Virus record (IMG/VR): IMGVR_UViG_3300035670_000009
Span: 128,001 to 192,000 of that record
DNA length: 64,000 nt
Strand: one strand, 5' to 3'
Source: a virus
Lineage: Duplodnaviria > Caudoviricetes
Below the pieces are notes generated by a model. It made no database searches and was not told the origin of the DNA. It saw nothing but the letters and a program-made list of their open reading frames with translations. A program made the position numbers and the translations under genes. Positions 22,254 to 51,011 of the stretch are shown here, piece by piece. Within the stretch, counting starts at the first letter, position 1, and each line of letters starts with the position of its first letter.

Positions 22254-22272
22254 GCTGGCCGCGCTGATAGCT

Positions 22273-22308
22273 AAGAAAAACGCTGCGCCCGCCCCGAAGG
22301 GCGGCGCG
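22273..22308 (-). terminator. intrinsic terminator with cUUCGg tetraloop
   Basis: GCGCGCCGCCC-TTCG-GGGCGGGCGC followed by AGCGTTTTTCTT on the minus strand. Confidence 0.7.
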
Positions 22309-22330
22309 CGAACGCTTTTCTGAATCACGA

Positions 22331-22899: not shown

Positions 22900-23086
22900 G
22901 ACGTAGCCTCCTCAGCGGGCTACTGGGTAGCGCCCAGCGCGCAGCGGCTTTCCGATACAGCCGCCAATAGATATCTATTCCGCGCGTTTCACACGGTAGC
23001 GTGATACTACCGCGCCGAAACACCGCAGGGAATGCGCTCCGGTGCAAAACCCTGGGCAATTAATATGCCCGCGTTTCCGGACTTTT

Positions 23087-27162: not shown

Positions 27163-28452
27163 TTACCGGTTGACGAGTTCCAGAACGTGCTGCTTCATGA
27201 TGTCGCGCAGCTGACGCGACCGCTTGGTGCGTGCTTCCTTGACCTGGAACTTGCCGCTCCGCTTGAAGTTGATCACGGCCGCGCCGATCGCGTTCAGGTC
27301 GTTCACTGAAGCCATCTTGGGCGCCATCTCGGCGCCAGCCTCGGGGCCAGCGGGCGGCATGTCGCCTGCGCCGCCACCGCCCTGCAGGGCACCAATCAGA
27401 GCCTCGGGCGGAATGCCCAGCTCTTCAAGCGCCATGGCCAGCTCCTGAACCGCCTCGTCTTCTGACGGGGCGCCAGCGCCCTCGGCACCCATCGGCATTG
27501 CACCGGCGTCTTCGCCGCCCATCATGCCCTCGAGACCGGCGGATTCAGCGCCCATCTCTCCGGCCGGGCTTGCGCCGGACTCGTCGTCACCGGGAGCCGA
27601 GTGATCCTCGCCTTCCGCAGCCTCATCGCCCATGTCCGCAGCCGCGGCCTTTGAAGCGAGGAAGCCAATGAACAGGTCCGCCATCTCGTCGGCCTCGCGG
27701 AGCGTGTTTGCCGCAACTTCGCGCACGGACGCTTCAGCCGCCTCTTTGCTCATGCCGAGCGCCGCGGCCAGCTCGTAACCAGCTTTGAAAGCGGCTTCCT
27801 TGCCCTCGCGAAGAGCTGCGAGATCAGAACCCTCGATCTTGCCGTCGTTGTCAACGTCAAGTTTGTGCTGATCACCCTTCAGCTCCCCCTTCGGCGCGTC
27901 CTTCTTCTTTTCCTTGAGGAAGGCAGGCATCTCGGCGGACTTCTCTGCGCTGGCGTTGAGCAGCGTCGCGAGAATGTCGTTACCAAGCGCCGCGGCTCGG
28001 GTCATCGCTTCTTTGAAAGAAACCGACGAATACTTTTCGCCGTCGTTTGCCTTCGCGGGGTGCGAGGTGCCCGGGTCGTCCTTGTCGCCCTTGTAGTCGT
28101 GCTCGGCGGCCGGATCTTCGCCAGTGGCGGCAACGTTTGTGCCGATGTTCTGCTGGACTTCGTCCTGACGGCCCTCATAGGGAAGCTCGGGAGTGTTGTC
28201 CACTGCGAGCGCGCCCTGCTGCTTCTTGATGTCGGCTTCGTATTCCGACGCGCGCGAACCAGTCTCCGCCTTCTGCACGTTGTTGTCGACGTGCGCGGTG
28301 GGGTGCGTAGACGCGCCCATGTAAGTGCCGGGGTCCGCCGGGGTGGGGCCGCCCTCCGCCTTTTTCTCGGCGGCTGTTTTCACAGCAGTGTGTGAAATCT
28401 CTTCGGCCAGGGCGTTAAGCTGCGCGAAAAGCGATCGTTGCATCCGTGCCAT
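27163..28452 (-). CDS. putative capsid scaffolding protein
   Basis: About 429 aa from MARMQ; acidic, Ala/Glu-rich, low complexity; directly after the protease gene. Confidence 0.6.
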   Translation of the reverse strand: MARMQRSLFAQLNALAEEISHTAVKTAAEKKAEGGPTPADPGTYMGASTHPTAHVDNNVQKAETGSRASEYEADIKKQQGALAVDNTPELPYEGRQDEVQQNIGTNVAATGEDPAAEHDYKGDKDDPGTSHPAKANDGEKYSSVSFKEAMTRAAALGNDILATLLNASAEKSAEMPAFLKEKKKDAPKGELKGDQHKLDVDNDGKIEGSDLAALREGKEAAFKAGYELAAALGMSKEAAEASVREVAANTLREADEMADLFIGFLASKAAAADMGDEAAEGEDHSAPGDDESGASPAGEMGAESAGLEGMMGGEDAGAMPMGAEGAGAPSEDEAVQELAMALEELGIPPEALIGALQGGGGAGDMPPAGPEAGAEMAPKMASVNDLNAIGAAVINFKRSGKFQVKEARTKRSRQLRDIMKQHVLELVNR

Positions 28453-28497
28453 GTTCTTCTCCTTTAGGCTCCACACGCTCTAACGCGCGGACTCCAT

Positions 28498-29955
28498 TCA
28501 AGTGATGTAATTTTGCAGAACACAATGGTTTGCTGTCAACCAGCAATTTCCATATTTCTCGCTGAGGGTCGCGTAAGCCGCAATCTTATAGAAAGCGTAC
28601 TGCCGCGCAAGTGCCGAAGCCGCGGGTTTATTATCGCCCGCCTCCTTGGCAAGAGCTGCAACCTGCACGTCGCGAAGCGCGCTATGGTAAGCGCGCTTTT
28701 CCACGGCTTGCGGTCGTACACTGTGCGTCATAGCTACCTTTTCAGCCCAGACCTGGACAGGCATTGCCGCGGCCGGAGCCGGAAGAAATGCGTTGTTTTC
28801 AAGCTCGCCCGCGGTGTCCGGGTCGTTTGCAAGTTTACTGAAAATGCTATCTAGCGCGCTAGTCACAGCGCGCACCAGGTTATCGCTCGCGGCTTTTACA
28901 GTAAGCGTTAAGAAATCGCGGACGGGGAGCACCACTCCCGCATCGGCTAGCGCGCGCAGGACCTGCCCGAATTTCACGTTCTCGCAAGGCGCAAAGTCGA
29001 CCGGCGGCTGCGCGTTAGCCGTCGACGCCAGCGCAACTTGTGTCCAGGCGCGGGGGTCGTGGATTACCGCGCGCTCGGCCGCGGCCAGTTTTTCAAGTGC
29101 CGCGAGTTGGCTTTGCAGCTGCAGGCTGGTGGCAACACGATCGAAACCCAGCGGCGCTGTAACGCCCAGCTGTTCGGCCAACTCGGCCCCTGAGAGCACA
29201 CCAGCGCTGGCTGCCTTTTGCAGAGTGCCAGAGATGTAGGCAATGCGATCAGCGGGGCGGAAAACGTGGCTGATGTCGAAGAACGTCGGATCGGGGTTGT
29301 CGGCGTGAAGGATGTGGCCGTCAGCGAGAACCCGCCCCAGGTTGTGTTTCAGCCCGCCCGCCTTGCACATGCCGCCATTCTCGACAGAGTCGCAATACTC
29401 TGCGCGCGTGCGAGCTTTGTTTCCGCAGCCAGAGCAAACGTCGAAAGGAATCTTGCAGGCCATCGAAACACCGATATCGTCGCCGCGAGCCAATTTCTCC
29501 GTTTCTTTGTCGGCGAGCAGGCCGCCGTTGCGCTCGGCAGCCTCCTTGCTGGCATTTAGCGCGCAGATCAGCTCGATCCGGTGCATTGGCTCGTTGTAGG
29601 CAGCGAGCTTCACAACGCCGTAGCTTTTGGCCGGGTTCTTGTTGAGATGGTCGCGGTAGAAACGCGCAAACTTCTCGAACGTGTGGTGGTGCTTGCGGCA
29701 GCAGTCGCGAGTGAAACCGTCGGCATTGCGGTTTGGGCCGTAATCTTCGGTGGCGCCGATCGCGATCATGTGGACCGGGATCTCGTCCGCCGCGAACTTG
29801 ATGCGGCTGAGGCGCTCGGCGAAATCCACGCCCGCGCGTTTCACAAAAGCGTCCTTGTCGGCTCCCAGTAGGCCGCGGCTGGAAATTTTAATTAGCGACG
29901 CTACCGGCTCGCTGAAATCCTGCGAGTTCGGCTGGATGATCTTGATCATGCTCAT
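28498..29955 (-). CDS. putative prohead maturation serine protease with Cys-rich insert
   Basis: 485 aa; RDHLNKNPAKSYGVV and GVSMAC resemble the His and Ser motifs of HK97/assemblin-type proteases; CSGCG...YC...C insert; upstream of scaffold and capsid. Confidence 0.6.
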   Translation of the reverse strand: MSMIKIIQPNSQDFSEPVASLIKISSRGLLGADKDAFVKRAGVDFAERLSRIKFAADEIPVHMIAIGATEDYGPNRNADGFTRDCCRKHHHTFEKFARFYRDHLNKNPAKSYGVVKLAAYNEPMHRIELICALNASKEAAERNGGLLADKETEKLARGDDIGVSMACKIPFDVCSGCGNKARTRAEYCDSVENGGMCKAGGLKHNLGRVLADGHILHADNPDPTFFDISHVFRPADRIAYISGTLQKAASAGVLSGAELAEQLGVTAPLGFDRVATSLQLQSQLAALEKLAAAERAVIHDPRAWTQVALASTANAQPPVDFAPCENVKFGQVLRALADAGVVLPVRDFLTLTVKAASDNLVRAVTSALDSIFSKLANDPDTAGELENNAFLPAPAAAMPVQVWAEKVAMTHSVRPQAVEKRAYHSALRDVQVAALAKEAGDNKPAASALARQYAFYKIAAYATLSEKYGNCWLTANHCVLQNYIT

Positions 29956-29964
29956 AGGAGTGCC

Positions 29965-30591
29965 CTAGTTGTTGCCGCGGTTCAAGAGCGAATACATCAA
30001 AAGGGCGCCAGCAGCTGGAATGCCGAGCTTTCCCGCTCGCGGAAGTTTGCTGAAATTTTTGGCCAGTTCGCCGCTCCCTCGGAGCGTACTTTTGATGTAG
30101 GGCGCGGCAGCTGGTACTGCCTTGCCAGCCTGCAACGCGCCGCGCACCGCCGCGCGATTAATCTGTTTGGCCGCGATCGGCGCATAGCCTGCAGCGGCAG
30201 CGGCACCAGCAGCGCCCAGGCCGACGCCGACGCCCTTGGCTACTGGGCTGAGTTTGCTTTTTACCGGCGCCTGAAGACTCTTTGGAGGCGGCGCAGTCGC
30301 GTCGCCAAGCATTTTTGCGCCGAGCGTCAAACCACCTGCGCCCAAACCGCCAAGCAGCGCGTAGTGAAGCGCTTTCCGTTTTTTGTCTTCGCCGCCGGTT
30401 GCAAGGCCGAGCAGCCCGCCTGCGCCAGCGCCTAGCAACGCATTACGCAGCGCAGGATTTTCCAGCGCTCCCGAAAGATGCGACTGGATGTCGCCCATAT
30501 TCAGCGCCGCCTTCACCATTGGATCTGGCTCGCCGTACACCGCTTGGTGCGCCAGGTTTTCGGCAAGGGCTTGAAGTGTGGTGTCTTCCAT
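29965..30591 (-). CDS. Gly-zipper hydrophobic protein, possible internal virion protein
   Basis: 208 aa; LLGAGAGGLLGLA, LLGGLGAGGLTLG, GVGVGLGAAGAAA. Confidence 0.65.
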   Translation of the reverse strand: MEDTTLQALAENLAHQAVYGEPDPMVKAALNMGDIQSHLSGALENPALRNALLGAGAGGLLGLATGGEDKKRKALHYALLGGLGAGGLTLGAKMLGDATAPPPKSLQAPVKSKLSPVAKGVGVGLGAAGAAAAAGYAPIAAKQINRAAVRGALQAGKAVPAAAPYIKSTLRGSGELAKNFSKLPRAGKLGIPAAGALLMYSLLNRGNN

Positions 30592-30598
30592 GACTTCC

Positions 30599-32455
30599 TC
30601 AAATCATCTGCCGTTCGAGATTTTTTGTGTCCATCTGAGCTTTTGCAGTTTCGGCCCTGGCCTTCTCCATGTCGATGAGCTGCTTCACATCGAAGTCGGC
30701 CATCTGCCCGGACTCAAGCCGTTTGCGCAGCAGCGCTTGCATAGCGGCCGGGGAGTCAACAAACTGCGGCGCCACGTCTGCCAGCTCGTTGAAAGCCTGC
30801 GCCACCTCGGTTGGATCGTGGCCGGAGATCACCGGGTCGTTAAGCACCATATCGTGGAGCATGCTCTGTGCCCGGATGTTGCGCAGGGCCGTCTCGTGCT
30901 CCGGATCGGTAAGGCTCTGGTAGGCCTTGGTCTTCATCTTTTTCTCGCCTTCAGCCGCGCCCTGCGCCATTCGGCTGGCGATGGCCTTGGCCGCGCTGAG
31001 GAAACCGCTGCGCACCGGAGCAAGGCTAAAGCCGCCGCTTTCGCGCTCGCCGCCGCGGCTACCTTGTCGCCGCTGCCGACCAGAACGTGATGGTTGAGAA
31101 GGGCGGCCACCGCCGCCAGAACCGCCACCGCCAGAACCGCCACCGCCAGGACCGCCACCGCCAGGACCGCCGCCTACTGGCCCCGCGTCTTCAAAGCTGT
31201 CGGGTTCCGCGCCCTCGTCTGAGTAATCGAGTTCGTCGTCTTCTGGAATTAGCGGCGAGCCGGAGTTTCGCTGTTGCTGCTGGCGCGCAGCTCGATTAGC
31301 AGCCTCGTGCGCCAGTTGCTCGGACCGCATCCGGTCGTATTCATCTTCGGGCATTGTTTCGTCCTGATGCACCCAAACAGGGTTGCCGAGCTTATTGTCA
31401 GGCATAACAAGTCGGAAATTGTCGCCCGGCGATGGTCGCCGATTGACAAAGTCTGCATGCGCTGCCGGGTCGACCTCAGTTCCCTTGTTGCCAAGCCGCG
31501 GCGCGCCTTCTTGCCCAGCGCGCGGCGGATCGACTAGGCCCCAGCGATCGCCAGCCGCCATGGCGCCCTTTAACACCAGCGGTTCATCGGCCGGGTTGTG
31601 CAGAATGCTTCCGGTGACGACCGCTGGCTCAGCTTTTTTTGCTGCGGCCTGCTTCGCCGCGGGCACCCGCGCCTGCGCCTCGTTGTAAGCTTCAAGGGCG
31701 CTGAGCACCGCGGCGGCCAGCTTGCAGGGCTGGCAATCGCCGATGATGACGTCCTTTGTGGCGGCCTGCTTGGTCAGGTGCGGGTAAACGGCGGCTAGCT
31801 TGTTAAGCACGGTCACGCCGTCCTCGCCGTAGCGCAATTCGGTCTCGCGCACGGCGTCTTGAAAACTCAAATTGCCCGGACGGCGGAAATACTCGTGAAG
31901 CTCTTCCATCGCCGCCGCGGCTTTGCTGTAAGCCGCCGTGGCCTGACGACGAAGCTCTTCCTGGGCCAACTCTGCAGCCCGCTTCTCAGAGGCAGCCCGT
32001 CGAACGGCCGCTTCTTCGTCGCGAGGCGGAGGGACCCACGTCTTCTCGGGCAAAGATATCTTTGCAGCGGCCTCCTTGGACTGCGCGGCCTTGCGGCGCG
32101 CCAGCATTCCGGCAGGACTAACGGCGTAGTCGGCCGAAACCGCATGCGCGCTTGAAAGTTCAGCAGAAGTTTTCACCGCTTTGGGAAACAACGCGTCCAT
32201 CACGGTGTCGGCGTCGGCCAGAGGGAAGTCGGCTGCCTTTTCCAGCGTGCTTTCGCCCTGCTCGCGTTGTTTGGTCGTGCGGCCCGTGTTGTAGGCGTGG
32301 ACCATAAGATTGATATGGCCCGCGGGAACGTCCGACTCGCTGGCGCTCTTGATGATCGCGGCGTTCGGAGTAAGACCGGCGTTCACGTAGCTGGCCGCGC
32401 GCTCAATCGCGCTGATCAGCTGTGCTTCAGCCTGTTTCGAAAGGGGCTGCATCAT
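30599..32455 (-). CDS. large helical head-module protein with a low-complexity insertion
   Basis: 618 aa; many K-x-A motifs (SKQAE, EKAAD, SKEAA, TKQAA, AKQAA). Confidence 0.7.
   Translation of the reverse strand: MMQPLSKQAEAQLISAIERAASYVNAGLTPNAAIIKSASESDVPAGHINLMVHAYNTGRTTKQREQGESTLEKAADFPLADADTVMDALFPKAVKTSAELSSAHAVSADYAVSPAGMLARRKAAQSKEAAAKISLPEKTWVPPPRDEEAAVRRAASEKRAAELAQEELRRQATAAYSKAAAAMEELHEYFRRPGNLSFQDAVRETELRYGEDGVTVLNKLAAVYPHLTKQAATKDVIIGDCQPCKLAAAVLSALEAYNEAQARVPAAKQAAAKKAEPAVVTGSILHNPADEPLVLKGAMAAGDRWGLVDPPRAGQEGAPRLGNKGTEVDPAAHADFVNRRPSPGDNFRLVMPDNKLGNPVWVHQDETMPEDEYDRMRSEQLAHEAANRAARQQQQRNSGSPLIPEDDELDYSDEGAEPDSFEDAGPVGGGPGGGGPGGGGSGGGGSGGGGRPSQPSRSGRQRRQGSRGGERESGGFSLAPVRSGFLSAAKAIASRMAQGAAEGEKKMKTKAYQSLTDPEHETALRNIRAQSMLHDMVLNDPVISGHDPTEVAQAFNELADVAPQFVDSPAAMQALLRKRLESGQMADFDVKQLIDMEKARAETAKAQMDTKNLERQMI
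31106..31175. repeat. 15-bp tandem repeat (about 4.5 copies) encoding a GGGGP/GGGGS linker
   Basis: accgccaccgccag(a/g) units at 31121, 31136 and 31151 plus flanking partial copies. Confidence 0.9.
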
Positions 32456-33384
32456 TATTCTCCCGGGAACCGTAGGTCCTGGATCAATTTTTGGTCGGTT
32501 AGTTTACCGCCAGCGGCGACAATCATCAGCTCGTCGTTGCGCAACTCTGCCGCTCTGTCATCGTAAGGTAACATTTTCTCGGCTGCGGATTCCAGTTTTG
32601 TCCCAATTCGGAACGGCAAGGCGCCCAGCATGGCGCCTATGTTCTCAACGATTGTGCTTTGTGCTTTCCCGGCGTTTTCGCTGGTTTTTTCGATCTGCAC
32701 GTACTGTACAAAACTGTCAATAATCGCCAGCTGCGTGTGCGTGTTAATAGGCACCGTAAGCGTGGCGATAGCCGCTTTGTGCTTCACGGTGTTCACGGCA
32801 AAGTCCTGGAAGAACTGGCCGACGTCCTCGGGTCGTTCAGGCTTGGAAATAGGGCTGCACTTCGAAATAACCGACTCCAGCACATAGGGGCCGCCTTGGT
32901 AGCCAAAAAGCTTCCAGAGCAGGTCGTACTGTCGCTCAGACACGCCGCGAGTTACAGCGTCGGCCATAACTACGTTTACAACGTAAAGTTTGTCGTTGAG
33001 CCGGTCCCGGACGTCGAAGAACACGTTCTCGTACGCCTCAATGATCTCGGAGTTGGTGCCGATCTTTGCGGCAATCTGCTGACTGGTCATTCCCGCCAGG
33101 ACGCAAGCCTCTATGGCCCAGCGCATCGGGCTTCGTTCGTCGAGCCACATTGAATGCGCCCAAAACAAATCCCGGTCGTACTGGATCAGGCGGTACAGCG
33201 CGTCAGGTCGGTTGCCAGCCTTTTCGTAACGCCGCTTCATCCGCGACGCCCGGCGGATCCACGCAAAACCGGTTTCGCCGTCCGCGGCCCTGGTCGCCCG
33301 CGGACCGCCAGTGTCGATCTGAACAGCCCGCAGCCAACGCCAATTCGGCGCGCGGCGCGGGTTATCGCGAAGTGCTTGAAGCAT
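32455..33384 (-). CDS. hypothetical protein
   Basis: 309 aa, 1-nt overlaps at both ends. Confidence 0.7.
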   Translation of the reverse strand: MLQALRDNPRRAPNWRWLRAVQIDTGGPRATRAADGETGFAWIRRASRMKRRYEKAGNRPDALYRLIQYDRDLFWAHSMWLDERSPMRWAIEACVLAGMTSQQIAAKIGTNSEIIEAYENVFFDVRDRLNDKLYVVNVVMADAVTRGVSERQYDLLWKLFGYQGGPYVLESVISKCSPISKPERPEDVGQFFQDFAVNTVKHKAAIATLTVPINTHTQLAIIDSFVQYVQIEKTSENAGKAQSTIVENIGAMLGALPFRIGTKLESAAEKMLPYDDRAAELRNDELMIVAAGGKLTDQKLIQDLRFPGE

Positions 33385-33779
33385 TAGCCCATCTTCGGGA
33401 CTTCAATCGTCACCGAGAACACAAAGTTCTTGGCGCCCGAGCCCGCCGGGGTGATCTTCAGGTAAAGATATCTTTGTGGATTTGTCGGCGTGCCGTCTCG
33501 GTTGATATAGGCCACTTCAGCGCTGTGGTCGTCGACCTTGGCCGCCGTGGGCAGCGTGATGTCGAGAATGTGAAACGCCTCAGCGGGCAACGTGCTGTTT
33601 GGCGCAGTGTCCTGTTTGCTGGTGTAGAGCGCCGCAGCGGCACCGGCATTGGCGCCGCTAGTCTGTGTCAGGCTGTAGCCGCGAATAATGCCGCGGTGCG
33701 GCACGCGAATTGGAACCACCGTCTGCGTGCCGCTCGCAGCTTCAAACGTCGTTTCGCCTGACCAAATCGTACTTGCCAT
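33384..33779 (-). CDS. hypothetical beta-rich protein
   Basis: 131 aa, tightly packed. Confidence 0.65.
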   Translation of the reverse strand: MASTIWSGETTFEAASGTQTVVPIRVPHRGIIRGYSLTQTSGANAGAAAALYTSKQDTAPNSTLPAEAFHILDITLPTAAKVDDHSAEVAYINRDGTPTNPQRYLYLKITPAGSGAKNFVFSVTIEVPKMG

Positions 33780-36247: not shown

Positions 36248-38122
36248 TTATGGGCGCCATCCGCTCGTTGCGCCAGTCATTCCAAAGGTTTCTCCGCGGG
36301 CCAGCCCTGGCACAAAGCTGCTGCCCGCGGTGTCGCTAGTTGCGCCCCGATGCACGCTGCTAAGCAGGCCGCGTTCTTGGTACGAGCCGAGCATACGCGT
36401 CATCCAGTCCGGGTCGTTCGAAATATTCGCCATGCCGCGAACCATTTCTGGCTGAAAAGGCGGCTGCTGCTTGTGCGCCTCGATATTGTTAATGCCGTAT
36501 TTTTGCAGCGTATTAACGACGTTACGGCCAATTTTCGTGCCAATTGAATAGTGCAACACGGGCCGCTCCAAATAATGGCCCTGCAGGCTCTTGGGCGCGC
36601 CTGTCACACTGCCCGCGCGGGGTTGCCAATTTCGCTCGATCATCGAATATGGCACAACGTCGTCTGGGTTGTATTCGCCATGCTCGTCGGTCATACGGAC
36701 GTGATTCACCAGCCCGCGCGCGAGCAGCTCGATGTTGCGGCGGTGGCCGTTGACGTTAGAGTTTTGAAGTACCTGCCGCATGGCTTGAACGAAATACCGG
36801 CGGCCCTCGCCGATGCCCTTGTGGCGCACCACTTCGGACGGATTAGGCATGCCGTCGGTGAGCGAGTCACCTGCCTCGATCTCCTGGCCCTTTTTGACGG
36901 TGATCTCGCGGTCCACCGGGATGTAGTGGTCCTGGCCGCCGACCTGGACGTAGTAACCGCCCTGGGGCGCCTCCTTGATCTCTTGGACGTGGCCGTCAAC
37001 TTGGGCGTGCGTGGCGCCATTGGGGTATTTCTTGGGAACCTGGACCAACGCGTTGATCGCTTTGAAGCCGCCAATAGCGCTCGCGCCACCGACGCCGCCG
37101 GAATGTTTAGACGAGATCTGCGCTTGGGTAACTGGTTCCGACAGAGCTTGCGCTGCGGCGATGCCAACGTAGTCGCCAATAGGCGGCATTTTGCCCTTCT
37201 CGCGATAGCCGACGTCTCTGGCGTACACGCCGCCGTCGTCTGGGCCGCCGACCAACGGACTGCGAACCAGCAGATCCTGCACGCCCATTCCTTTGATATC
37301 TTTCAAAATCTTCGGCGTCAGAACAGTATTGCGCTTGTATGGTCCGACGGGTCGGGCGAGCAGCGCGCCTTCGTTGTCCATGTCGTCGACGTCAGTGGGA
37401 TAGCCGCGGTCGTGCGCGGTGGCATTGCGCTCCTGATCGTCGTCATCGTCGGCGGTGACGAGCAGCCGATGCGTCATTTGGCTGAGCTGCTTGCCGAAAA
37501 AACCCGCGTCCGCAGTAGCCGTCTTCAGGTCGAGCACGCCCTTGCGGGCGCCAAAGGCGCCCGCAAAATACTCTACGGGCCGTAAACCCTGGCCGTAGCC
37601 GCGCAGTACGGGAATAGGAATAGGCTCGTTTTTATGGTCGACGTACTGCAAGTCTGCGCCGATAAGTGAGTTGAGGCTGAACTTGTTTCCGCGGCTAACG
37701 CCGTGGACCTGGTGAGCCAGCGGGTTGTCCGTTGCCTTGGCTTCTTCGTAGACCTTTTCAACGAGGTCTTTTTGCGCGGTCGAGGCGAGCTGGAGCAGCT
37801 TGAGGTTACGCGTTTTCTCGTCGAGCGCGCGGTCGGCGAGAATGCCGCGGAGCTGCATCTGCACTTTGTGCTGCGCCTCCTTGGCGGCGACGGTCTGCTT
37901 GATGTCCTTCAGCCCGAACGAAAGACCACCCGCCGAATAAGACGTGTCGCGGGCCACGTCGTGAAGGTTCTTCATGACCTCCCGATACTTGTCGGGATGC
38001 TTTTCGGCGAGCTGCGTCGCGAGATTACCCATGTCTTTCTTAGTGAGGACGCGGTTGTAGTCGCGCAGATCTTCCGGCAGCGCTTCGTTAACGAGAATCT
38101 GGCCGAGTGTGGTTTTAAGCAT
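36248..38122 (-). CDS. rpoC: DNA-directed RNA polymerase beta-prime C-terminal chain (bridge helix, trigger loop)
   Basis: KTTLGQ start; bridge helix YFAGAFGARKGVLDLKTATADAGFFGKQL; trigger loop VGIAAAQALSEPVTQAQISSKHSGG; HRRNIELLARG. Confidence 0.9.
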   Translation of the reverse strand: MLKTTLGQILVNEALPEDLRDYNRVLTKKDMGNLATQLAEKHPDKYREVMKNLHDVARDTSYSAGGLSFGLKDIKQTVAAKEAQHKVQMQLRGILADRALDEKTRNLKLLQLASTAQKDLVEKVYEEAKATDNPLAHQVHGVSRGNKFSLNSLIGADLQYVDHKNEPIPIPVLRGYGQGLRPVEYFAGAFGARKGVLDLKTATADAGFFGKQLSQMTHRLLVTADDDDDQERNATAHDRGYPTDVDDMDNEGALLARPVGPYKRNTVLTPKILKDIKGMGVQDLLVRSPLVGGPDDGGVYARDVGYREKGKMPPIGDYVGIAAAQALSEPVTQAQISSKHSGGVGGASAIGGFKAINALVQVPKKYPNGATHAQVDGHVQEIKEAPQGGYYVQVGGQDHYIPVDREITVKKGQEIEAGDSLTDGMPNPSEVVRHKGIGEGRRYFVQAMRQVLQNSNVNGHRRNIELLARGLVNHVRMTDEHGEYNPDDVVPYSMIERNWQPRAGSVTGAPKSLQGHYLERPVLHYSIGTKIGRNVVNTLQKYGINNIEAHKQQPPFQPEMVRGMANISNDPDWMTRMLGSYQERGLLSSVHRGATSDTAGSSFVPGLARGETFGMTGATSGWRP

Positions 38123-38123
38123 C

Positions 38124-38363
38124 TCACGGCTTCCAGAGCATCTTGTCGATCGGCTTGGGTGTGAGGTCGTTGACCACTACAGTCTTATCAACGCCGAGAA
38201 CGCGAAGAAGATTATGAAAGTCGTCATCGCCAACGTGCGAGCAGATGATGTGATCGTCATGCTGCAGCGCCACGTAGATCGGGTTTCCCAGGTCATCTTC
38301 AACGATGACGCTGTGCGCCCGCTGCTCGTGTGGCTGCAGGTTGTGTTGCAGCTTAACGCGCAC
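38124..38363 (-). CDS. small hypothetical protein
   Basis: 79 aa, overlaps the upstream stop and ends 1 nt before the next ATG. Confidence 0.65.
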   Translation of the reverse strand: MRVKLQHNLQPHEQRAHSVIVEDDLGNPIYVALQHDDHIICSHVGDDDFHNLLRVLGVDKTVVVNDLTPKPIDKMLWKP

Positions 38364-39087
38364 GCTCGAGGCTCCTGAACAACGCCGCCACGGCCGCTGC
38401 CTTCAGCTGCGTCTCTGTCGGCGCGTCCGGGTTCTGCTCGGCAAATTGGGCCAGCGGTTTATCCCACCAATGCGCCATTTTTCCGGCCGACGGGTCCATC
38501 GGTGCCTGGCTCGGATCCATCGGCCCGCCCGGGGGCATCGGGCCGCCGGGGGGCTGCGGACCAGCTGGCGCGTTGGGGTCCTGGGGCGGCGGGGCCATCG
38601 GGCCGCCAGGTAATGCCGTCTCGGCAGGCGGCGCGCCGGTTGTGCCCGGCGGAAGAACGAGCGACTCGGGCGGAACCTGGACCCCCATCGCGTTCATAAT
38701 TGCCGTTAGCTGCTGCTGCATGTTATAGAGCCGATAGTCAAGCATCTGCATCATCTGCTCGGGCTTGAGTTTTTGCTGGCCAGGAACTCCGCCCTGCGGC
38801 GTGGCAGGCGGCATCGGGGCCGGAGCGGCCGCGGGAGGAGCGGCAGCTGTTGCGGCGCCAGTCGGATCCTGCGAGGGGTCAATCGGCGCAGCGCCCATGG
38901 CGGCCGTGGCAGGATCGACGGGCTGCGCAGCGCCCTGAACGCCCAGCTGCGAAGGGTCGGGAGCTTCGCCGCCCATTGGAGGCGCGCCCTGAGCGGCCAT
39001 CATGGCAGCATCCGACGGCACGACCGCGGACTTCTCGAACGCGTGACGAGCCATCTTTAGCAGCTCGGGATTGACCGTGAAACTCAT
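38353..39087 (-). CDS. Pro/Ala/Gln-rich, probably disordered protein
   Basis: 244 aa; SD GGAGG; central helix QMLDYRLYNMQQQL. Confidence 0.7.
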   Translation of the reverse strand: MSFTVNPELLKMARHAFEKSAVVPSDAAMMAAQGAPPMGGEAPDPSQLGVQGAAQPVDPATAAMGAAPIDPSQDPTGAATAAAPPAAAPAPMPPATPQGGVPGQQKLKPEQMMQMLDYRLYNMQQQLTAIMNAMGVQVPPESLVLPPGTTGAPPAETALPGGPMAPPPQDPNAPAGPQPPGGPMPPGGPMDPSQAPMDPSAGKMAHWWDKPLAQFAEQNPDAPTETQLKAAAVAALFRSLERAR

Positions 39088-39100
39088 GGGAACCTCCGTG

Positions 39101-42100
39101 TTAACTCTCGACTATATGCACCGGGGTATCGACCTCAATCTCGCCTCGCCGATAGGCCTTAATGGCGTCCTGCCGTGACTTATATACCCGCGGCTTCGCG
39201 CGTTTGTCGACCCGGCTGCTGGCCAGGTAAATCCCGGACTGAAACTCAGCCTGCGGAATATAGTGCGCTTTGAAGTTAGCCGCCGCAAACAAGTTTTTTG
39301 AGGGAAGCATCTTTTCGACGGCTTCCTTTGCCGCGTCGTCCGTGCTAGGAACGTGATACTGCATCGCGTCCCCGTCGAAGTCGGCGTTAAAACCCTTGGT
39401 AATGACCGGATTGACCTCCATCACCTTGTTCTTAGTGAGCTTTGGGTAGAAGGCCATCATACCGTATCGATGAAGCACCGGCGCACGGTTGATTACAATC
39501 GGCCGGGACGACATCTGCCGCTCCAGCTCCGCGTGCGCCTCCTTGTTGCGGTCCTCGACGTGCTGGAGGGCCTGCATCCGCGGCAACCCCCGCCGCACCA
39601 AGCCGCGCACCACGAACGGCTTGTAGACCTCCCAGGCTTTGTCCTCGGGCAGCGCCACCTCGTCCATGTCCAGGTCCGGGTTTGGCGTGATTACGGCGCG
39701 GCCCACCAGGTCGACCGTGGTGCCTAGAAGTTTGCGTTGAACGGTGCCGTACTTCGGCGAACTGCCGAAAATGTGCTTCAAGAATCCCTTGACCTGCCGC
39801 TCCTGATTCTTGGGCTGCGTCGGATCTCCCAGGCCAGAGACCGCCTTCATCGCGTCATACAGGCCGAGGCGCTCGTTGCCGTACTCCGCCAGGGCGCCGG
39901 AGGCGTCCTTCAGCGCGCTGTTTGAGTCGATCAACTCCTTGTACAGATAATTCGCGTCAGCCACGAGCGGGAGCTTCTTGGCGCCCATCGTCGAGACCGG
40001 CCGGAACAACGGCGGCAAGACGGGCATCTTGGTGAGCATCCACTCCTGGGGATGAATTCCCTGGCTCTCGGCGGCCTTGAGAAAACCGAGCTTGCGCACG
40101 GCGGCGTCGCGGAGCGTTTTGCGGCCCGACTTAATGTCTTCTCGGCACTGTTCAATAGCCTTGGGAAGATTAATCCGGCCAAGCGCGTCTTTAATCGCGC
40201 TAGGACCCGACTTGTCGAACAGCTGCGTCTCGCCCGCCAAGACAGAGCGAAACTGCTTTTCGGTAAGTCCCAAAACTCGACGAATTGGCTCTTCCATAAC
40301 CGGATTGGGCATCGGCTCGTGCAAAGATATCTTTGCCCAACGATTTCCGCCGTGTCCGCCGGTTAATTTCTCGTCGAATAGGCCGCCCGGAACTGGCTTC
40401 AATCGTCCTTTCCAGTCCACTGTTTCAGAACTGGTGATTTCTCGATCTTCAGCCAGCTGATCGACGTCTTTGTCGGCGATGGCCATGATGTGCGTTTTAG
40501 TACCGGTGCGGACAGTGTTAATGCCGCTGGCCCGCAATTGATTGACAAATTTCTCATAAACGTGCGGCACTTTGGGCAGCGGCGGCGTATAGCCCGACAT
40601 GAACTGTGACCAGTACTCGGGGTTGGCCTGCCCGCGGACCATCTTTGCGTCACGGATGACCTTTCCGGCGCCGTGGCTTAAAAGCGCGCCCAGGTCCAGC
40701 ATGCCAACGCGCTTGGCGCCCTCCGAGCCGCCTTTAGCGGGAGTTCCTTCTGCCGTGTACGCGCCCATTGCGCGACCCTGCCCCTTAGACTCCGACGTGT
40801 GGTGAAGTTTCATAAAGAACCGGTGGCCGGTCAGCACGCCTTTGATCTTACGACCGGTCTCCGGATCAATGACGTCCTCAGTGTCGGAGAGGCCGTGCTT
40901 CCCAAGCTCGTTCTGCGCAAACGCAATGATGTCTTTTTCGCTGTCGAAGTCCTTTATCTTGAAAGGCTGTCCGGTTTTCGCGGCGACTTTACCCAGTGCA
41001 GCTTCGATAACCTGAGAGGCATTTACGCGAGAGATCAGCCCCAGCGGCGAAACCAGAACCTCCATCGGGCTGCCGTCCTTGTCGTGCGGCATCTGGTGGT
41101 CCGGGACGATGTCGGCAACAACGCCTTTGTCACCAAAACGCCCTGTAAGCTTGTCGCCCACCTGCATCTCGGCGGTGCTTTTCACGACGACCGACACGCC
41201 CTTATCAGTGTGCTCGACGTCAGTGACGATACCCGGCGAGTGATGATCCCAGGTGATCGTATCATTACTGAACGCGCCCGCGCGTCCGCGGTGAACTTTG
41301 CCGTAAGTGGTTTCCTTGGCTTTAGCCTGCAGCACCAGCGGGTCGCCGTAGTTGACTACGGTCCCCTTTTGAATAGCGCCCTTGTCGTCGAACTGGGCCA
41401 GCGTCTTCTTGTCGTACTCAGAGGGGAAGAGCGACACGAAAGCTTTCTTGCCAACGTGCGTGTTGTCGCTCCACTCAGCCTCGTGCTGGTACATGTGCTG
41501 GCTAGTGAGCTTCTTGGCCGCCGACTCCGAAATCACCACGGCATCTTCGTAGACCTTGCCCCTGAAAGGAAGGTAGCCAACGCGAAGGTTCTTGCCCAAA
41601 GCAGCTGAGCCCTGCTTGTCGGTGAAGTTCGAGTGCGCCAAAAGCTGCCCGGGCTTAATCGTGTCGCCCGGCTGCACAGCTGGCGTCTGGTGCCAAAAGG
41701 TCTTGCGGTTGAACGGCATGTCGTTGTAGAGATCGACTGTCGATTTGTTACCGTCTCGATCGCGGAGCACGATCTCGTCGGGCGACACGGAAACAACCTG
41801 GCCGTGGAACTGGGCCTTCACGGCGCCAAGCTTTTCGCCCATCTCGTCTTCGTGGCTGATGCCGTCCTTGTCGACAACAGCCGACTGCACGAAGGGCGCT
41901 TCTGCGTCGTTCAAGGGCAGCGCTTGGGTAAACATGCGGCTGCCCATGATCGCGCGCTGGCCCTTAATCATGCTCTTGAGCGGCAGCATGTTCGAGAGCG
42001 CCGAGAAGGTGCTGTCCATGTGCGGCAGAGAATATTGAACCTCTTCCCGCGGCATGTACTTCATCTTGCCGCCCACGAGAGCCGCGACCATCGGCAGGTC

Positions 42101-43471
42101 GGTTTTCTCCTCGCCAGGAAACGCCACGGGCATGTCGGCCAGTTCGCCCGGCGTCTTGTATTCCTGCGCGCCGGTCTGCATGTTGCGCACCGGCGTATAG
42201 ATCTTGCCGTCAGAACCCTTGACGGCGCCCCGCGCGAAGCGCATGTCGACGCCCGCTTTGCCCGACTCCGGCGTGCGCAGAAAATCGATGTAGCCAAGGT
42301 GGCTGGGCTGCACGGCGCGGGATTCCACCGGCACTGCGTCCAGCGAACCGATGCCGCCCTCGCCCATACGAGTCACGCGGTTCTGGTGGTCGAAGATTTC
42401 GGCCGGGTTAATTTCTTCGAGCGAGCTGCCCAAGCCCGAGCCAATCAACGCAGCATTGATCGCCTTGTTGAAGAACCCCGTAGGCACGTGGTCAAGATTT
42501 TTCTTCGCCGTGGCCTTCCAAAGCAACTTGCGCAGCGCCTGCTTGTCTTTACTGAAGCGCTCAGCAATCAGGTCCTCGGGTCCGACAACGCTTTGATATG
42601 CCATTGCGTCGCGGTCGTCTGGATCGGCCTCTTTGCGATTAACGGCAATGAGCTTTTTCGTAATGTCGAGAATCGCTTCGGGGGTAAGGTTCTTGTATTC
42701 CTTGCCAAGAGTGCGCCGCGTAACGTCGGGGTCGAGTTCCATGCGGGCAAACTCTGTCGCAATAGCTTGCTGCTTAGCGGCCGCGTCCAATCCCGGAGTT
42801 TGCTTGTAAACAAGTCGCTGGTAGAGCTTGTCGAGAGTGCCCGCGTCGCCCTTCTCCATGTTGACGGCGGTGATCTCGTTGCCCCAAGCGCCGCGGATAT
42901 CGGCATCTTTGGCGCCGAGCGCTTTGAGCAGCGGCATCAGCGGAATCTGGGCCTGGCCAATGTTAATTTTCATCACGCCGGTCTTCGGGTCGAGGAAGTA
43001 CCGGTGCATGCGTCCCTTGCCGGGCAGCACGTTAACGTGCGCCTCCAGCTCGCCGTTGTCTTTCTCGCGCGTGTAGACGCCCGCCTTGAGCCGCATCTGG
43101 TGGGCCAGGGTGTACTCGACGCCCCGGTTCACAAACGTGCCCGAGTCAGTGAGGTACGGCACGTGCGCAATCGTCTGCTGACGTTTGGCGATCGGCTGCC
43201 CGGTGGCGTTGTCGATTAAATTCCAAGTGCCGGTGAGCCGCCGGTGCAACGAGTTTCCGGTAAGAACGGCCCGTTTTTGATCGCGCTTGTTGTAGCGCTC
43301 CGGCCCCGTGTAATTCACGTCCGAAAGTTGGAGCGTGTAGAGATCGTTTTTGATCGGCTCGATCGCGCTGGCGCTTTGGAGCGCGCGATCAAAAATGCCG
43401 GAACGCAGCGCGTGGATGTCACCAAATGCGCGGTGTTGCGGCGGCGTTTGCCCGAGAATCGAGTCTGGCAT
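39101..43471 (-). CDS. rpoB: RNA polymerase beta subunit fused to the beta-prime N-terminal half (catalytic chain)
   Basis: Beta motifs PYLTDSGTFVNRGVEY, GDKLTGRFGDKGVV, FMKLHH, GAKRVGML; beta-prime motifs PVLPPLFRP, LLGTTVDLVGRAVI, NRAPVLH and catalytic FNADFDGD. Confidence 0.93.
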   Translation of the reverse strand: MPDSILGQTPPQHRAFGDIHALRSGIFDRALQSASAIEPIKNDLYTLQLSDVNYTGPERYNKRDQKRAVLTGNSLHRRLTGTWNLIDNATGQPIAKRQQTIAHVPYLTDSGTFVNRGVEYTLAHQMRLKAGVYTREKDNGELEAHVNVLPGKGRMHRYFLDPKTGVMKINIGQAQIPLMPLLKALGAKDADIRGAWGNEITAVNMEKGDAGTLDKLYQRLVYKQTPGLDAAAKQQAIATEFARMELDPDVTRRTLGKEYKNLTPEAILDITKKLIAVNRKEADPDDRDAMAYQSVVGPEDLIAERFSKDKQALRKLLWKATAKKNLDHVPTGFFNKAINAALIGSGLGSSLEEINPAEIFDHQNRVTRMGEGGIGSLDAVPVESRAVQPSHLGYIDFLRTPESGKAGVDMRFARGAVKGSDGKIYTPVRNMQTGAQEYKTPGELADMPVAFPGEEKTDLPMVAALVGGKMKYMPREEVQYSLPHMDSTFSALSNMLPLKSMIKGQRAIMGSRMFTQALPLNDAEAPFVQSAVVDKDGISHEDEMGEKLGAVKAQFHGQVVSVSPDEIVLRDRDGNKSTVDLYNDMPFNRKTFWHQTPAVQPGDTIKPGQLLAHSNFTDKQGSAALGKNLRVGYLPFRGKVYEDAVVISESAAKKLTSQHMYQHEAEWSDNTHVGKKAFVSLFPSEYDKKTLAQFDDKGAIQKGTVVNYGDPLVLQAKAKETTYGKVHRGRAGAFSNDTITWDHHSPGIVTDVEHTDKGVSVVVKSTAEMQVGDKLTGRFGDKGVVADIVPDHQMPHDKDGSPMEVLVSPLGLISRVNASQVIEAALGKVAAKTGQPFKIKDFDSEKDIIAFAQNELGKHGLSDTEDVIDPETGRKIKGVLTGHRFFMKLHHTSESKGQGRAMGAYTAEGTPAKGGSEGAKRVGMLDLGALLSHGAGKVIRDAKMVRGQANPEYWSQFMSGYTPPLPKVPHVYEKFVNQLRASGINTVRTGTKTHIMAIADKDVDQLAEDREITSSETVDWKGRLKPVPGGLFDEKLTGGHGGNRWAKISLHEPMPNPVMEEPIRRVLGLTEKQFRSVLAGETQLFDKSGPSAIKDALGRINLPKAIEQCREDIKSGRKTLRDAAVRKLGFLKAAESQGIHPQEWMLTKMPVLPPLFRPVSTMGAKKLPLVADANYLYKELIDSNSALKDASGALAEYGNERLGLYDAMKAVSGLGDPTQPKNQERQVKGFLKHIFGSSPKYGTVQRKLLGTTVDLVGRAVITPNPDLDMDEVALPEDKAWEVYKPFVVRGLVRRGLPRMQALQHVEDRNKEAHAELERQMSSRPIVINRAPVLHRYGMMAFYPKLTKNKVMEVNPVITKGFNADFDGDAMQYHVPSTDDAAKEAVEKMLPSKNLFAAANFKAHYIPQAEFQSGIYLASSRVDKRAKPRVYKSRQDAIKAYRRGEIEVDTPVHIVES

Positions 43472-43476
43472 TGCGC

Positions 43477-44685
43477 TTACTCATCGGACTCAACAGTCGA
43501 TTTGATATGCGCGAGCGACTCCGGGTCGACCCACACGGGCGGCAAGCCCTTTGTCCGCGCGCGGGACGCCTGCGCCTTAGCCAGGTTCTCGCCTTCGGTG
43601 AGATTCTTGGTGCGGTCGTACATGTATTTGGCGCCAAGCCCGCCAGCGCCCAGCAGCGTAAGCAAGTAAGCAGTCCGCAAAGTTTGCGGCGTGTTCCACA
43701 AAGCGCTGGCCGTACTCGAGAGCATGTTGGCTTGCTTGACGCGATCAAAAGCGACGTCGAGGGCGCTCGCGGACTTCCCGCCCAGCGCGTTGTAATACTC
43801 GGCACGCGCGGCTTCGAGCGCGGATTCGCGATCGCGTTTCTTCTTGGCCTTCACGAGCGAATTAATGAGCTTCGCGCCTGCATAGGTACCCAACGCCGCG
43901 CCACCGATGTTGGCGGCCGTGCTCCAGCTTTTTCGCCACGGGTGCGGGTCAGCAGACGGCGCCGGACCGCGGCCTGGTACGTTCGGGGCGCCGAACGGCA
44001 CCATCGTCGTGGGGAGCGCCTTGCCAACCGATTCTGAAAGGCTGTTCAGGTCGAAACTGTTCTTAATCGCGAACGGGTTATTCGCGGTCGAGAACGGGCC
44101 CTGGTTGTTGTTCGGCATGCCATTTACGAAACCAAACGGCTGCGGCGCGGCAGGAACAATATTTTTGTTAATGCCGGGGTTCATCTGCTGCTGCGGGGCG
44201 AATGAATTAGCCGCGCTCGTTGTCTCGAACGGTCGTGCGGCCTGCATGGCCTGTCCGACACGTGCGTACATACTCCCAGAGGAGAACGGAATTTTTGTGA
44301 GAGACTGCATAAAAGGCACATATTGCCGCATGCTTTCGGGATTAAAGCCGCCAAACGGGCCATTTTGGGCGGGTCGATTCTGCGGCATAATTCCGGAACC
44401 ACCGACAAGCGACATGTCGAGCGGGCGACTGGGGTCATATCTGAGATTGGCTTCCTTGGCGATCATCGGCGTACCCGAGCCATAGCTCGGGTACTTTTTT
44501 TCCTTTTTGCCTTCGGGTTTCATACCGCGAAGCAAGTGGTACAGCGCCGCAGCGCCGAGACCAATACCGGCACCGGCTCCCGTGCTCGACAGGAGCCGCT
44601 TGCCGTAAAACTGCTGCAAAAGCTGCTCGCGCTCAGCAGCAGACGGGCCACCAAAGATTCCAGCGAGCTTTTCAGTGTTGTTCAT
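43477..44685 (-). CDS. Gly-zipper/low-complexity protein, possible internal virion protein
   Basis: About 402 aa from MNNTEKLAG (ATGA overlap); three GxxxG hydrophobic helices each following a K-x-A motif. Confidence 0.65.
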   Translation of the reverse strand: MNNTEKLAGIFGGPSAAEREQLLQQFYGKRLLSSTGAGAGIGLGAAALYHLLRGMKPEGKKEKKYPSYGSGTPMIAKEANLRYDPSRPLDMSLVGGSGIMPQNRPAQNGPFGGFNPESMRQYVPFMQSLTKIPFSSGSMYARVGQAMQAARPFETTSAANSFAPQQQMNPGINKNIVPAAPQPFGFVNGMPNNNQGPFSTANNPFAIKNSFDLNSLSESVGKALPTTMVPFGAPNVPGRGPAPSADPHPWRKSWSTAANIGGAALGTYAGAKLINSLVKAKKKRDRESALEAARAEYYNALGGKSASALDVAFDRVKQANMLSSTASALWNTPQTLRTAYLLTLLGAGGLGAKYMYDRTKNLTEGENLAKAQASRARTKGLPPVWVDPESLAHIKSTVESDE

Positions 44686-45038
44686 GACGTTGCCTTCGGC
44701 GGAATCATCCCGTAAACCTGGGCCCATTCCAGCCATACGCGGTAGTGCTTGTTTTCTTCGTCATAGACGTCTGCCCGCTTCAGCAGGCGATACCAACCGT
44801 TCACTATCTTATCATTTATGTCGTCAAACTCGGCTTTTGCCTCGGGTTCCCAGAGTAGGAACATCTTCGAGCGGTAGTCGTAGCGCAGCTCGAGGTTTTC
44901 CAGCTCATCCTGTTTGAGATTGGCCGTCGCGCTCTGCGGGCCGATGACGGGAAAGCCGTCCAGCGTGCCCGGCCAGCTCAGGCGCTCTCCGCTGTGCTGC
45001 GGGCCGCCCATTTCTGCGTGAAACTTGCGCAAACTCAT
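44682..45038 (-). CDS. hypothetical protein
   Basis: 118 aa, SD AGGAG. Confidence 0.7.
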   Translation of the reverse strand: MSLRKFHAEMGGPQHSGERLSWPGTLDGFPVIGPQSATANLKQDELENLELRYDYRSKMFLLWEPEAKAEFDDINDKIVNGWYRLLKRADVYDEENKHYRVWLEWAQVYGMIPPKATS

Positions 45039-45056
45039 CGCACTGCTCCTTCAGTT

Positions 45057-45404
45057 TTAGCGGGCAGTACGGTACTCCCGCAGTTTCCGCCGCGCCTTCG
45101 CCCGGGCCGCCATCACCTTGTAGGTGTTGATCAGCTCCTCGTTTTTCATCTCGTCTTCATCGAGCTTGGGCGCGGTTAGTTTAGCGGCGCCATAACCAAG
45201 TGCGCCACCGCCTAAAAGCGAGGCGGCTACGGGCAGCCCGACGATGCCGCCCGCGGCAGTTGCGATGTCGCCCACGACACCTGCGGTTTTCTCGTTGAAT
45301 TCGGCAACACGGCTCAGGCGCGCGGCCAGATCTTCGCCGGTCAGGCCTTCTTCAGCGCAGCGAGTAAGAAAACCAAGTTTGAACAGCTGGGCGGCATCCA
45401 TCAA
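45057..45404 (-). CDS. small Gly-zipper hydrophobic protein
   Basis: 115 aa; EKTA followed by GVVGDIATAAGGIVGLPVAASLLGGGALGYG. Confidence 0.65.
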   Translation of the reverse strand: MMDAAQLFKLGFLTRCAEEGLTGEDLAARLSRVAEFNEKTAGVVGDIATAAGGIVGLPVAASLLGGGALGYGAAKLTAPKLDEDEMKNEELINTYKVMAARAKARRKLREYRTAR

Positions 45405-49547: not shown

Positions 49548-49913
49548 TCATTCTTTCTCGGCGCGAATGCGCTCAACTGCGATCGCTTCCATATACCGGT
49601 ACCGCGCGTCGATCATGGCTTCTTTCACGGCAACGCGTGCCGAGATGTACTTCCAGACGAGCGCCGCATTCACAATGATCACCTGCGCCGCGCCGATCAA
49701 CGCAGCAAGGCTTCGGCTAACCGTCTCGGCATCACTGGCGCTAATCCAACCCAGCACCACGCCCACCGCGATGAGATTTGTGACGGCCGAGACGACCATC
49801 GTCCAAAACTCAGGGGTGAACCAATCGGAACCAGCGGGCGCCACCTCGTCGGCAGCCTGTCCCAACTCGCGCAGCTCTTCGCGAATCGACGCAATCGGCT
49901 TCTTTGTCGCCAT
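49548..49913 (-). CDS. two-TM holin-like protein
   Basis: 121 aa; WFTPEFW followed by two TM helices and a charged C-terminus. Confidence 0.45.
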   Translation of the reverse strand: MATKKPIASIREELRELGQAADEVAPAGSDWFTPEFWTMVVSAVTNLIAVGVVLGWISASDAETVSRSLAALIGAAQVIIVNAALVWKYISARVAVKEAMIDARYRYMEAIAVERIRAEKE

Positions 49914-49976: not shown

Positions 49977-51011
49977 CTAATACCCGCGGAAAAGTGGCGG
50001 CATAGCCGCATGCATCATCCCGCCCCAAAGACCCAAATCCTGGAGCTTATGTTGTGTTGCAGGAGGCAGCACCGCCAGCGCTGAAAGCGTCCGCCCGGCG
50101 ACGTTAGCCGTCGCCATTCCGACACCGGCCGAGGCAAAGCCCCGGACCACGTCGATCGGGCGAATCATGGGGGACTGCAACCCCGTGCTAATGCCGCTCA
50201 TCAATCCCGTCGCGGCAGCAGCGAGCGGGGGCGGCGTGTGCTGACCAAACGGCCCGTAAGGATCAATCATGCCCTTGTGCACGTCACGCCACAGCGCCGT
50301 GTTGAACTGCGGCACAGAGATTGTCGGCTGATTTATGCCCACGGCGTCAGGAACCATCGGATTAGCTGGATTAAAACCGTAGTTGACGACGTAGCTTTCC
50401 TTTTCGAACGGATACACAACAGGTGTGTCGTTACTGGTTATCAGACTTTTCAAGTAGGGGCGCTTCAGAGCTTGCGCATTGGCGTAGGCGTTCAGCGCGC
50501 CCACTCCCAAGCCAGTTCCGGCACCCAGGAGGCCAAGTGTTTTACTTAACCGGCCGCGGCGCCTAGCTCGCTCTGGAAACAGACGCTCAGCAAGCGCGCC
50601 GGTGCCGTAACCCAGGCCGCCCAGCATCAGCGCCGAAACAATGCCGTTTGAGAGCGGTGTCGGACCGCCCAGCGCAGCGTTGCCCAGCTCGAAGACGTGC
50701 TTTGCGCCAGGGAGCGCCGCCTGCTTGATAAGAATCTCGCGCTCCAGGTTCGGCGCCTGGCAGTTGCGCACGAAACCATAGTCGCCCAGATGCTCTCGGT
50801 AAATCGCGGCGTTTTTCTCAGGGAGCGGCGCCTTTGTCCAGAGCGTAATCGTGTTGCACTCGGCCATCCATGTCGCGACGGCCAGCGGAAGAATATCGGC
50901 AGCCAGCGCCGCTTTCTCGTGCGCAACGCGTGCCCGAGCCGCCGCAGGCAGCAGCTCGGCCACCCGCGCAGGGACCGCCTCCCACGCATAGATATCTTTG
51001 GCTGCCGTCAT
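49977..51011 (-). CDS. Gly-zipper protein with K-x-A motifs, possible internal virion protein
   Basis: 344 aa; EKAA, KQAA; LMLGGLGYGTGA, LLGAGTGLGVGA. Confidence 0.65.
   Translation of the reverse strand: MTAAKDIYAWEAVPARVAELLPAAARARVAHEKAALAADILPLAVATWMAECNTITLWTKAPLPEKNAAIYREHLGDYGFVRNCQAPNLEREILIKQAALPGAKHVFELGNAALGGPTPLSNGIVSALMLGGLGYGTGALAERLFPERARRRGRLSKTLGLLGAGTGLGVGALNAYANAQALKRPYLKSLITSNDTPVVYPFEKESYVVNYGFNPANPMVPDAVGINQPTISVPQFNTALWRDVHKGMIDPYGPFGQHTPPPLAAAATGLMSGISTGLQSPMIRPIDVVRGFASAGVGMATANVAGRTLSALAVLPPATQHKLQDLGLWGGMMHAAMPPLFRGY

Follow-up and report, generated by a model that had tools for sequence, protein, structure and literature searches.

In Salmonella phage Arash, whose RNA polymerase (RNAP) consists of the two chains Gp206 and Gp216, both chains are found in phage particles: the Arash report gives Gp206 as the most detected protein and Gp216 as the fifth, with the sigma factor Gp10 and the helicase Gp217 also present (PMC10585845). 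Among ejection proteins of N4-like phages, suppression of cysteine is an established trait and has been tied to passage through the periplasm (PMC11445570). Here, we describe an Arash-related RNAP from an uncultured tailed phage, encoded in a stretch of 64,000 nucleotides (IMG/VR record IMGVR_UViG_3300035670_000009, positions 128,001 to 192,000; hereafter the window), in which both zinc sites of the β' subunit are gone. This double loss is real, clade-wide, and undescribed in searchable papers, and the enzyme is a variant of the phage multi-subunit RNAP within the Arash family. The window is part of a complete genome of 203,910 base pairs (bp) with terminal repeats, known from aquatic and subsurface metagenomes of five studies, with the minus strand coding for nearly all genes. 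Among the data sets listed as containing the stretch, none is from RNA.

39101–43471, minus strand: fused RNAP chain, β plus the N-terminal half of β'; 1456 amino acids (aa), catalytic Asp triad at aa 1364/1366/1368, single cysteine Cys1109.
36248–38122, minus strand: separate β'-C chain; 624 aa, no cysteine, with bridge helix and trigger loop.
40322–40387, minus strand: stump of the β' N-terminal zinc-binding domain (site 1); five residues versus 37, with the zipper loop before it and the lid after it retained.
37439–37459, minus strand: where the C814 equivalent, first of the ligands of zinc site 2, has given way to a run of Asp, Asp (227/228).
37208–37264, minus strand: place of the other three site-2 ligands (C888, C895, and C898 equivalents), now Gly292, Tyr300, and Asp303.

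The N-terminal zinc domain is near-universal in cellular RNAPs, and the second site is a bacterial-type feature. The N-terminal domain touches promoter spacers, nascent RNA, and regulators, and its deletion in E. coli has been unobtainable (10.1101/2020.01.02.893370; PMC9378689); there, its spacer contact offsets weak −35 binding and is dispensable at strong promoters (10.1101/2020.01.02.893370). At the exit channel, the E. coli domain is also a binding site for put RNA.

A first-pass annotation of the window had proposed that this domain is deleted between two anchor motifs, and comparison with Salmonella and Enterococcus RpoC bears this out. The first anchor (aa 1029–1038 of the 1456-aa chain; 40387–40358, minus strand) is followed by a five-residue linker (40357–40343) and then directly by the next anchor (40342–40322), whereas in Salmonella RpoC the two anchors are separated by 37 residues, C70, C72, C85, and C88 among them, so that 32 residues are lost on balance. 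Of 49 distinct homologous stretches, 48 have a five-residue linker. AlphaFold assigns the stump a predicted local distance difference test score (pLDDT) of 88–95, and the deletion therefore looks clean. The sole conserved stump residue of Cys/His type is His1040 (35 of 37 homologues). One of the 39 copies of a genome-wide 12-bp palindrome (40323–40334) overlaps the codons directly after the stump.

All four ligands of site 2, likewise reported as gone from the second chain, have given way to other residues (Asp, Gly292, Tyr300, and Asp303). Of these, Asp303 does not vary among any of the aligned zinc-less homologues, Asp226 is conserved at the former site, and the site-2 motif occurs in 0 of 150 β'-C representatives (50% clustering). 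Site 2 is kept in Arash, Vibrio D69, and several divergent metagenomic relatives, whose β'-C cysteines are exactly those four. Aligned to RpoC across related phages, the stump proves to be clade-wide, with both sites gone in the phage described here.

The remainder of the enzyme is recognizably a multi-subunit RNAP, which keeps the catalytic Asp triad, zipper, lid, clamp helices, bridge helix, and trigger-loop His of bacterial RpoC; the triad is invariant in 37 homologues and the trigger-loop His in 28. Both AlphaFold models are RNAP folds with Foldseek matches to bacterial RNAP folds, and domain searches place only RNAP two-barrel families in the phage chains, not a single-subunit T7-like polymerase. 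The RNAP stretch recurs in contigs of three further studies, unbroken in one of them, and these contigs carry substitutions but no indels or joints; together with the cysteine-free close homologues, these independent contigs rule out an assembly artefact. In the trigger loop (37103–37138, minus strand), the bacterial Met/Arg/Phe before the catalytic His are Ile (Leu in some), Ser, and an invariant Lys, substitutions that may alter nucleotide selection or pausing.

Whether zinc could still reach the enzyme by another route turns partly on a small gene between the two chains:

38124–38363, minus strand: 79-aa open reading frame (ORF), conserved in many relatives, whose homologues contain 1 Cys in 2,428 aa; not a zinc domain.

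It is very improbable that zinc is held through His/Asp ligands, or that the domain is supplied in trans by this ORF or by a host factor. The conservation of His1040 in the stump and of Asp226 and Asp303 at the former site 2 would fit such ligands, and the ORF does remain beside the RNAP genes in many relatives. A single His is not a site, however, and the sequence around the stump offers no second conserved His; at site 2, a Gly and an aromatic residue occupy two of the four positions, and the homologue alignments contain no conserved Cys/His cluster replacing either site. Pattern and profile searches of the complete genome in all six frames, with a profile built from two bacteria and three phages, returned no separate zinc-domain gene (best E 0.55; positive control 3e-19), ruling out such a gene elsewhere. 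The suggestion in the first-pass annotation that 38124–38363 might supply the domain does not hold, as the one Cys of this ORF is non-conserved, its His positions 33–42 vary, and only Phe49 is invariant. A complex prediction of the ORF with the clamp region scored 0.00, which has no bearing either way, and Atlas searches with the 79-aa and a 794-aa protein gave no usable match. The annotation's description of the polymerase as zinc-free thus stands at the level of sequence, where the sites, any replacement cluster, and a separate domain gene are all absent, and at that level the enzyme is almost certainly zinc-free.

In a β' tree rooted on two bacteria, the zinc-domain-less clade, which includes Arash and D69, is supported at 100/100, as is a site-2-less subclade; a further tree unites Arash, D69, and this phage in one clade with a Shimodaira–Hasegawa-like approximate likelihood ratio (SH-aLRT) support of 99. 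Outside the site-2-less subclade branch Arash/D69, then the relative L076, then the relative L068, all with starred support. The N-terminal domain is absent from all four of these (those with a fused chain examined) and is kept in three phage RNAPs outside the clade, RHph_Y65, Carin-5, and Va2. From the tree positions of the site-2 keepers, it follows that the N-terminal domain was lost first and site 2 later, an order that rests on the starred branches and on the bacterial root, with a long branch flagged for Y65. As read from the sequences, the tree shows two nested losses: that of the zinc domain on a stem shared with Arash, and that of site 2 later, in a large uncultured subclade. The β' of Vibrio phage Va2 (L087:9734–13312) retains the N-terminal zinc domain and shows no CxxC at site 2, possibly an independent loss.

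The absence of zinc ligands is accompanied by a far broader removal of cysteine. The two RNAP chains contain 1 Cys in 2,080 aa where about 29 would be expected (genome mean 1.4%; Poisson P about 5e-12), and this lone Cys1109 is non-conserved, being Ala in 29 of 37 homologues. Close β'-C homologues are without any Cys in 118 of 118 cases. The genes needed for comparison are the following:

4270–5082, minus strand: phage sigma-70-family factor; 270 aa, regions 2–4, no cysteine, orthologue of Arash Gp10, lying among baseplate-type genes.
8122–12240, minus strand: tape-measure-like protein; 1372 aa, cysteine-free, so named from its size and position; internal comparator for an ejected protein.
25152–26078, minus strand: major capsid protein; 30% to Arash Gp226, placing the RNAP genes in the head-gene block.

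Across related loci, cysteine makes up 0.010% of the fused chain, 0.024% of β'-C, and 0% of both sigma and the 1372-aa protein, and the orthologue of the Arash helicase Gp217 contains a single Cys over its 928 aa. Flanking genes at the same loci stand at 0.9–2.5% for several and up to 3.8% for others, and virion proteins of this phage also contain cysteine (sheath 8, capsid 2, baseplate-region genes 1–4%). Among 150 divergent β'-C proteins, inteins hold 457 Cys in 24,206 aa and fused C-terminal extensions 28 in 62,659 aa. The purge is selective: it covers RNAP, sigma, helicase, and the tape-measure-like protein, and inteins and neighboring genes keep their cysteines.

C-terminal extensions of more than 200 aa, mostly cysteine-free, occur in 104 of the 150 divergent β'-C proteins (P0123–P0272); their Pfam matches include DUF5661, and one has NUDIX plus SNF2 helicase domains. 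Long, cysteine-rich, intein-like insertions sit at a few fixed positions in both RNAP chains (L003, L022, L046, L047, L057, and L068; P0025 and P0114), some with homing endonuclease domains. In the relatives L049, L059, L061, L064, and L065, the fused chain is broken into two ORFs within the β part, which suggests introns or further splits. Five further genes of the window are nearly cysteine-free (33384–33779, 43477–44736, 6803–7627, 49548–49913, and 49977–51011; homologues 0–0.06%) and are candidates for co-ejected head proteins. Repeated Lys-x-Ala words, seen by eye and in a crude count, lie near apparent segment boundaries of several head-block proteins (27163–32455 and 43477–45404) and are possibly sites of a maturation protease.

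A genome-wide check identifies the two chains as the sole RNAP of this phage. Searches of the complete genome gave no match to alpha or omega genes (controls recovered, 14/14), and the enzyme may use the host subunits. The RNAP genes lie about 10 kb from the capsid gene, inside a block that also codes for orthologues of virion proteins of Arash, and Gp206, Gp216, Gp10, and Gp217 of Arash all have orthologues here.

Two kinds of putative transcription signal occur in the genome, each with a copy in the window:

23063–23089, minus strand: candidate phage-sigma promoter, TAAA-N15-SGGCATAT.
22264–22310, minus strand: hairpin, U-tract, and terminator box (GCTATCAG), 60 nt past a stop codon.

The bipartite promoter motif has eight exact copies in the genome versus 0.15 expected, all on the coding strand and with the −10 box intergenic by our gene call; six of them lie at 12–28 kb of the genome, among small genes. 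Allowing one mismatch yields ten copies, and spacers of 14 or 16 nt yield none. Six close relatives have 5–9 copies each, on one strand, and distant relatives mostly have none. We regard the motif as a candidate promoter for the phage sigma. Its −35 box and 15-nt spacer resemble those of sigma-28 promoters, with a −10 box that departs from the sigma-28 consensus; a host sigma-28-like factor may read it instead.

On the coding strand, 7 of 9 strong hairpin-plus-U-tract sites directly precede the same short box, and an eighth is one base off; on the opposite strand, the box follows 0 of 6 such sites. All eight coding-strand copies of the full pattern lie between genes, and for seven of them a stop codon is no more than 120 nt away. 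In 24 relatives, the pattern has 91 matches versus 3 for a reversed control, and a folding energy of −15 kcal/mol or below is reached by 37 of the 59 sites retrieved versus 13% of shuffles. The box occurs in relatives down to about 50% RNAP identity, including a site-2 keeper, and is not enriched in Arash or D69. A tie to site-2 loss is ruled out by a site-2-retaining relative with four copies, and identity with the genome-wide palindrome by the near privacy of the latter (39 copies versus 0–2 in 15 relatives). A role as −35 element is disfavored, as 59 sites show no conserved −10 at a constant spacing, and an antisense promoter fits only 2 of 69 sites. That the phage RNAP reads the box is conceivable, though the chances fall short of even; it may be bound by another protein. 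The prediction in the first-pass annotation of altered promoter or termination behavior thus finds circumstantial support in a fixed-spacer promoter and a terminator box, both of which may be independent of the zinc loss.

The annotation had passed over a likelier cause, namely a clade-wide cysteine purge in an enzyme that is probably packaged in the virion. By analogy with Arash, we consider packaging of this RNAP likely. The two chains and sigma would be packed in the head, cross the tail and the host envelope in an unfolded or partly folded state, refold in the cytoplasm, and start early transcription, with no alpha or omega gene from the phage. During ejection, free thiols and zinc-dependent folding would be liabilities, an argument already put forward for the ejection proteins of N4-like phages. 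The N-terminal domain would have been cleanly excised. Because the −35 box and spacer of the phage promoters are fixed, and because the zipper has been retained, the contact of this domain with the promoter spacer was probably no longer needed; a Gly/Tyr/Asp turn would later have taken the place of site 2. In the weakest step, the fixed sequence after the terminator U-tract may aid pausing and release by the phage RNAP. Envelope passage as the cause of the cysteine and zinc loss is somewhat better supported than not, and the account as a whole, a packaged, ejected, cysteine-purged, and zinc-free RNAP with its own signals, is on balance the explanation we prefer. A stronger version appears unlikely, in which a self-contained, zinc-free machine of three proteins (the two core chains plus sigma), with its own fixed-spacer promoter, is ejected from the virion, refolds without metal, alpha, or omega, and reads the sequence after the U-tract in place of the zinc-domain contacts, a novel termination mode for multi-subunit polymerases.

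Several points weigh against this account. The ejected RNAP of phiKZ retains 16 Cys and site 2, and Arash has site 2 as well, so packaging requires neither loss; ejection is consistent with the absence of the first site, as seen in two lineages, and does not force the full purge. The virion evidence comes from Arash particles, the phage here being known from its genes alone, and the Arash report counts 116 proteins in the preparation, including replication enzymes, for which its authors allow co-purification (PMC10585845). The Arash capsid and tail proteins Gp226–228 also lack cysteine, so the trait extends beyond ejected proteins. The terminator box, present in a site-2 keeper and barely so in Arash and D69, tracks neither loss exactly, and genome bins with homologues span many unrelated taxa and indicate no host. 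Some of these points would suit a packaged RNAP that lost cysteine and zinc for stability outside the cell, in oxidizing, metal-poor water, rather than for periplasmic passage: phiKZ ejects a cysteine-containing RNAP, some structural proteins of Arash also lack cysteine, and the DNA occurs in aquatic and subsurface metagenomes. Exposed virion proteins of this phage nevertheless keep their cysteines (those of the sheath, capsid, and baseplate region given above), and the purge is concentrated on RNAP, sigma, helicase, and the tape-measure-like protein; we think this alternative improbable.

Less probable again is an RNAP made only during infection, whose sites decayed by streamlining once a dedicated sigma and a few strong promoters sufficed. 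As the sole RNAP in the genome, the enzyme may serve late genes too; the phage promoters are rigid; and the Va2 RNAP lacks CxxC at site 2 yet has many other cysteines. Streamlining leaves unexplained, however, why all non-ligand cysteines were lost, down to 100-fold below background, why sigma and the fused extensions were purged alike, and why inteins retained cysteine; nor does it account for the Arash virion data.

A widespread natural RNAP without either zinc site is a direct test of what these sites do, and the nested losses supply intermediates, one of which, Arash, is in culture and has site 2 only. Since a candidate promoter and a candidate terminator are available, reconstitution from two chains plus sigma becomes a defined experiment. 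The system also bears on virion delivery of multi-subunit polymerases, which is hard to study because such enzymes had not yet been purified as of a 2020 review (PMC7598289). In the literature searched, with subscription journals mostly outside it, we found neither a description of this zinc loss nor a paper describing the promoter and terminator motifs.

Set against known systems, the phage RNAP differs from bacterial RpoC (E. coli/Salmonella), which has both Cys4 zinc sites and the trigger-loop Met/Arg/Phe. In T7 class II terminators, a fixed sequence contributes to termination and precedes the U-tract, whereas the phage box follows hairpin and U-tract. The mReC clade (Weinheimer and Aylward 2020, PMC7481178) is likewise made up of uncultured tailed phages, about 200 kb in size, whose β and β' homologues stand apart from those of cells; its capsids match PF07068, whereas the capsid here (25152–26078) matches no Pfam family at E 0.1, and the accessible part of that paper describes no fusion, split, or zinc loss. 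The virion RNAP of N4/DEV (Schitoviridae) shares cysteine suppression with its co-ejected proteins, linked to periplasmic passage (PMC11445570), a suppression that is clade-wide here too, and differs in its single-subunit T7-type fold, unrelated to β/β'. The phiKZ virion RNAP (gp178, gp149, gp180, and gp80) is, like the present enzyme, a multi-subunit two-barrel polymerase without alpha or omega; it is injected with the DNA, as the present enzyme probably is, and its gp180 lacks the N-terminal Cys4 motif, which the non-virion gp55 has. It differs in having four or more chains, no sigma gene, 16 Cys, an intact site 2 in gp80, and a second, non-virion RNAP, compared with two chains, one RNAP, and a sigma here. 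Closest are Arash Gp206 and Gp216 (OQ632216; PMC10585845) and Vibrio D69/D148/D181, with the same fusion and split and the same five-residue stump; the accessible part of the Arash paper makes no mention of zinc or cysteine loss. Gp206 and Gp216 are 33% and 25% identical to the phage chains, and sigma, helicase, portal, terminase, and capsid are orthologous, whereas Arash and D69 keep all four site-2 cysteines and nearly lack the promoter and terminator motifs.

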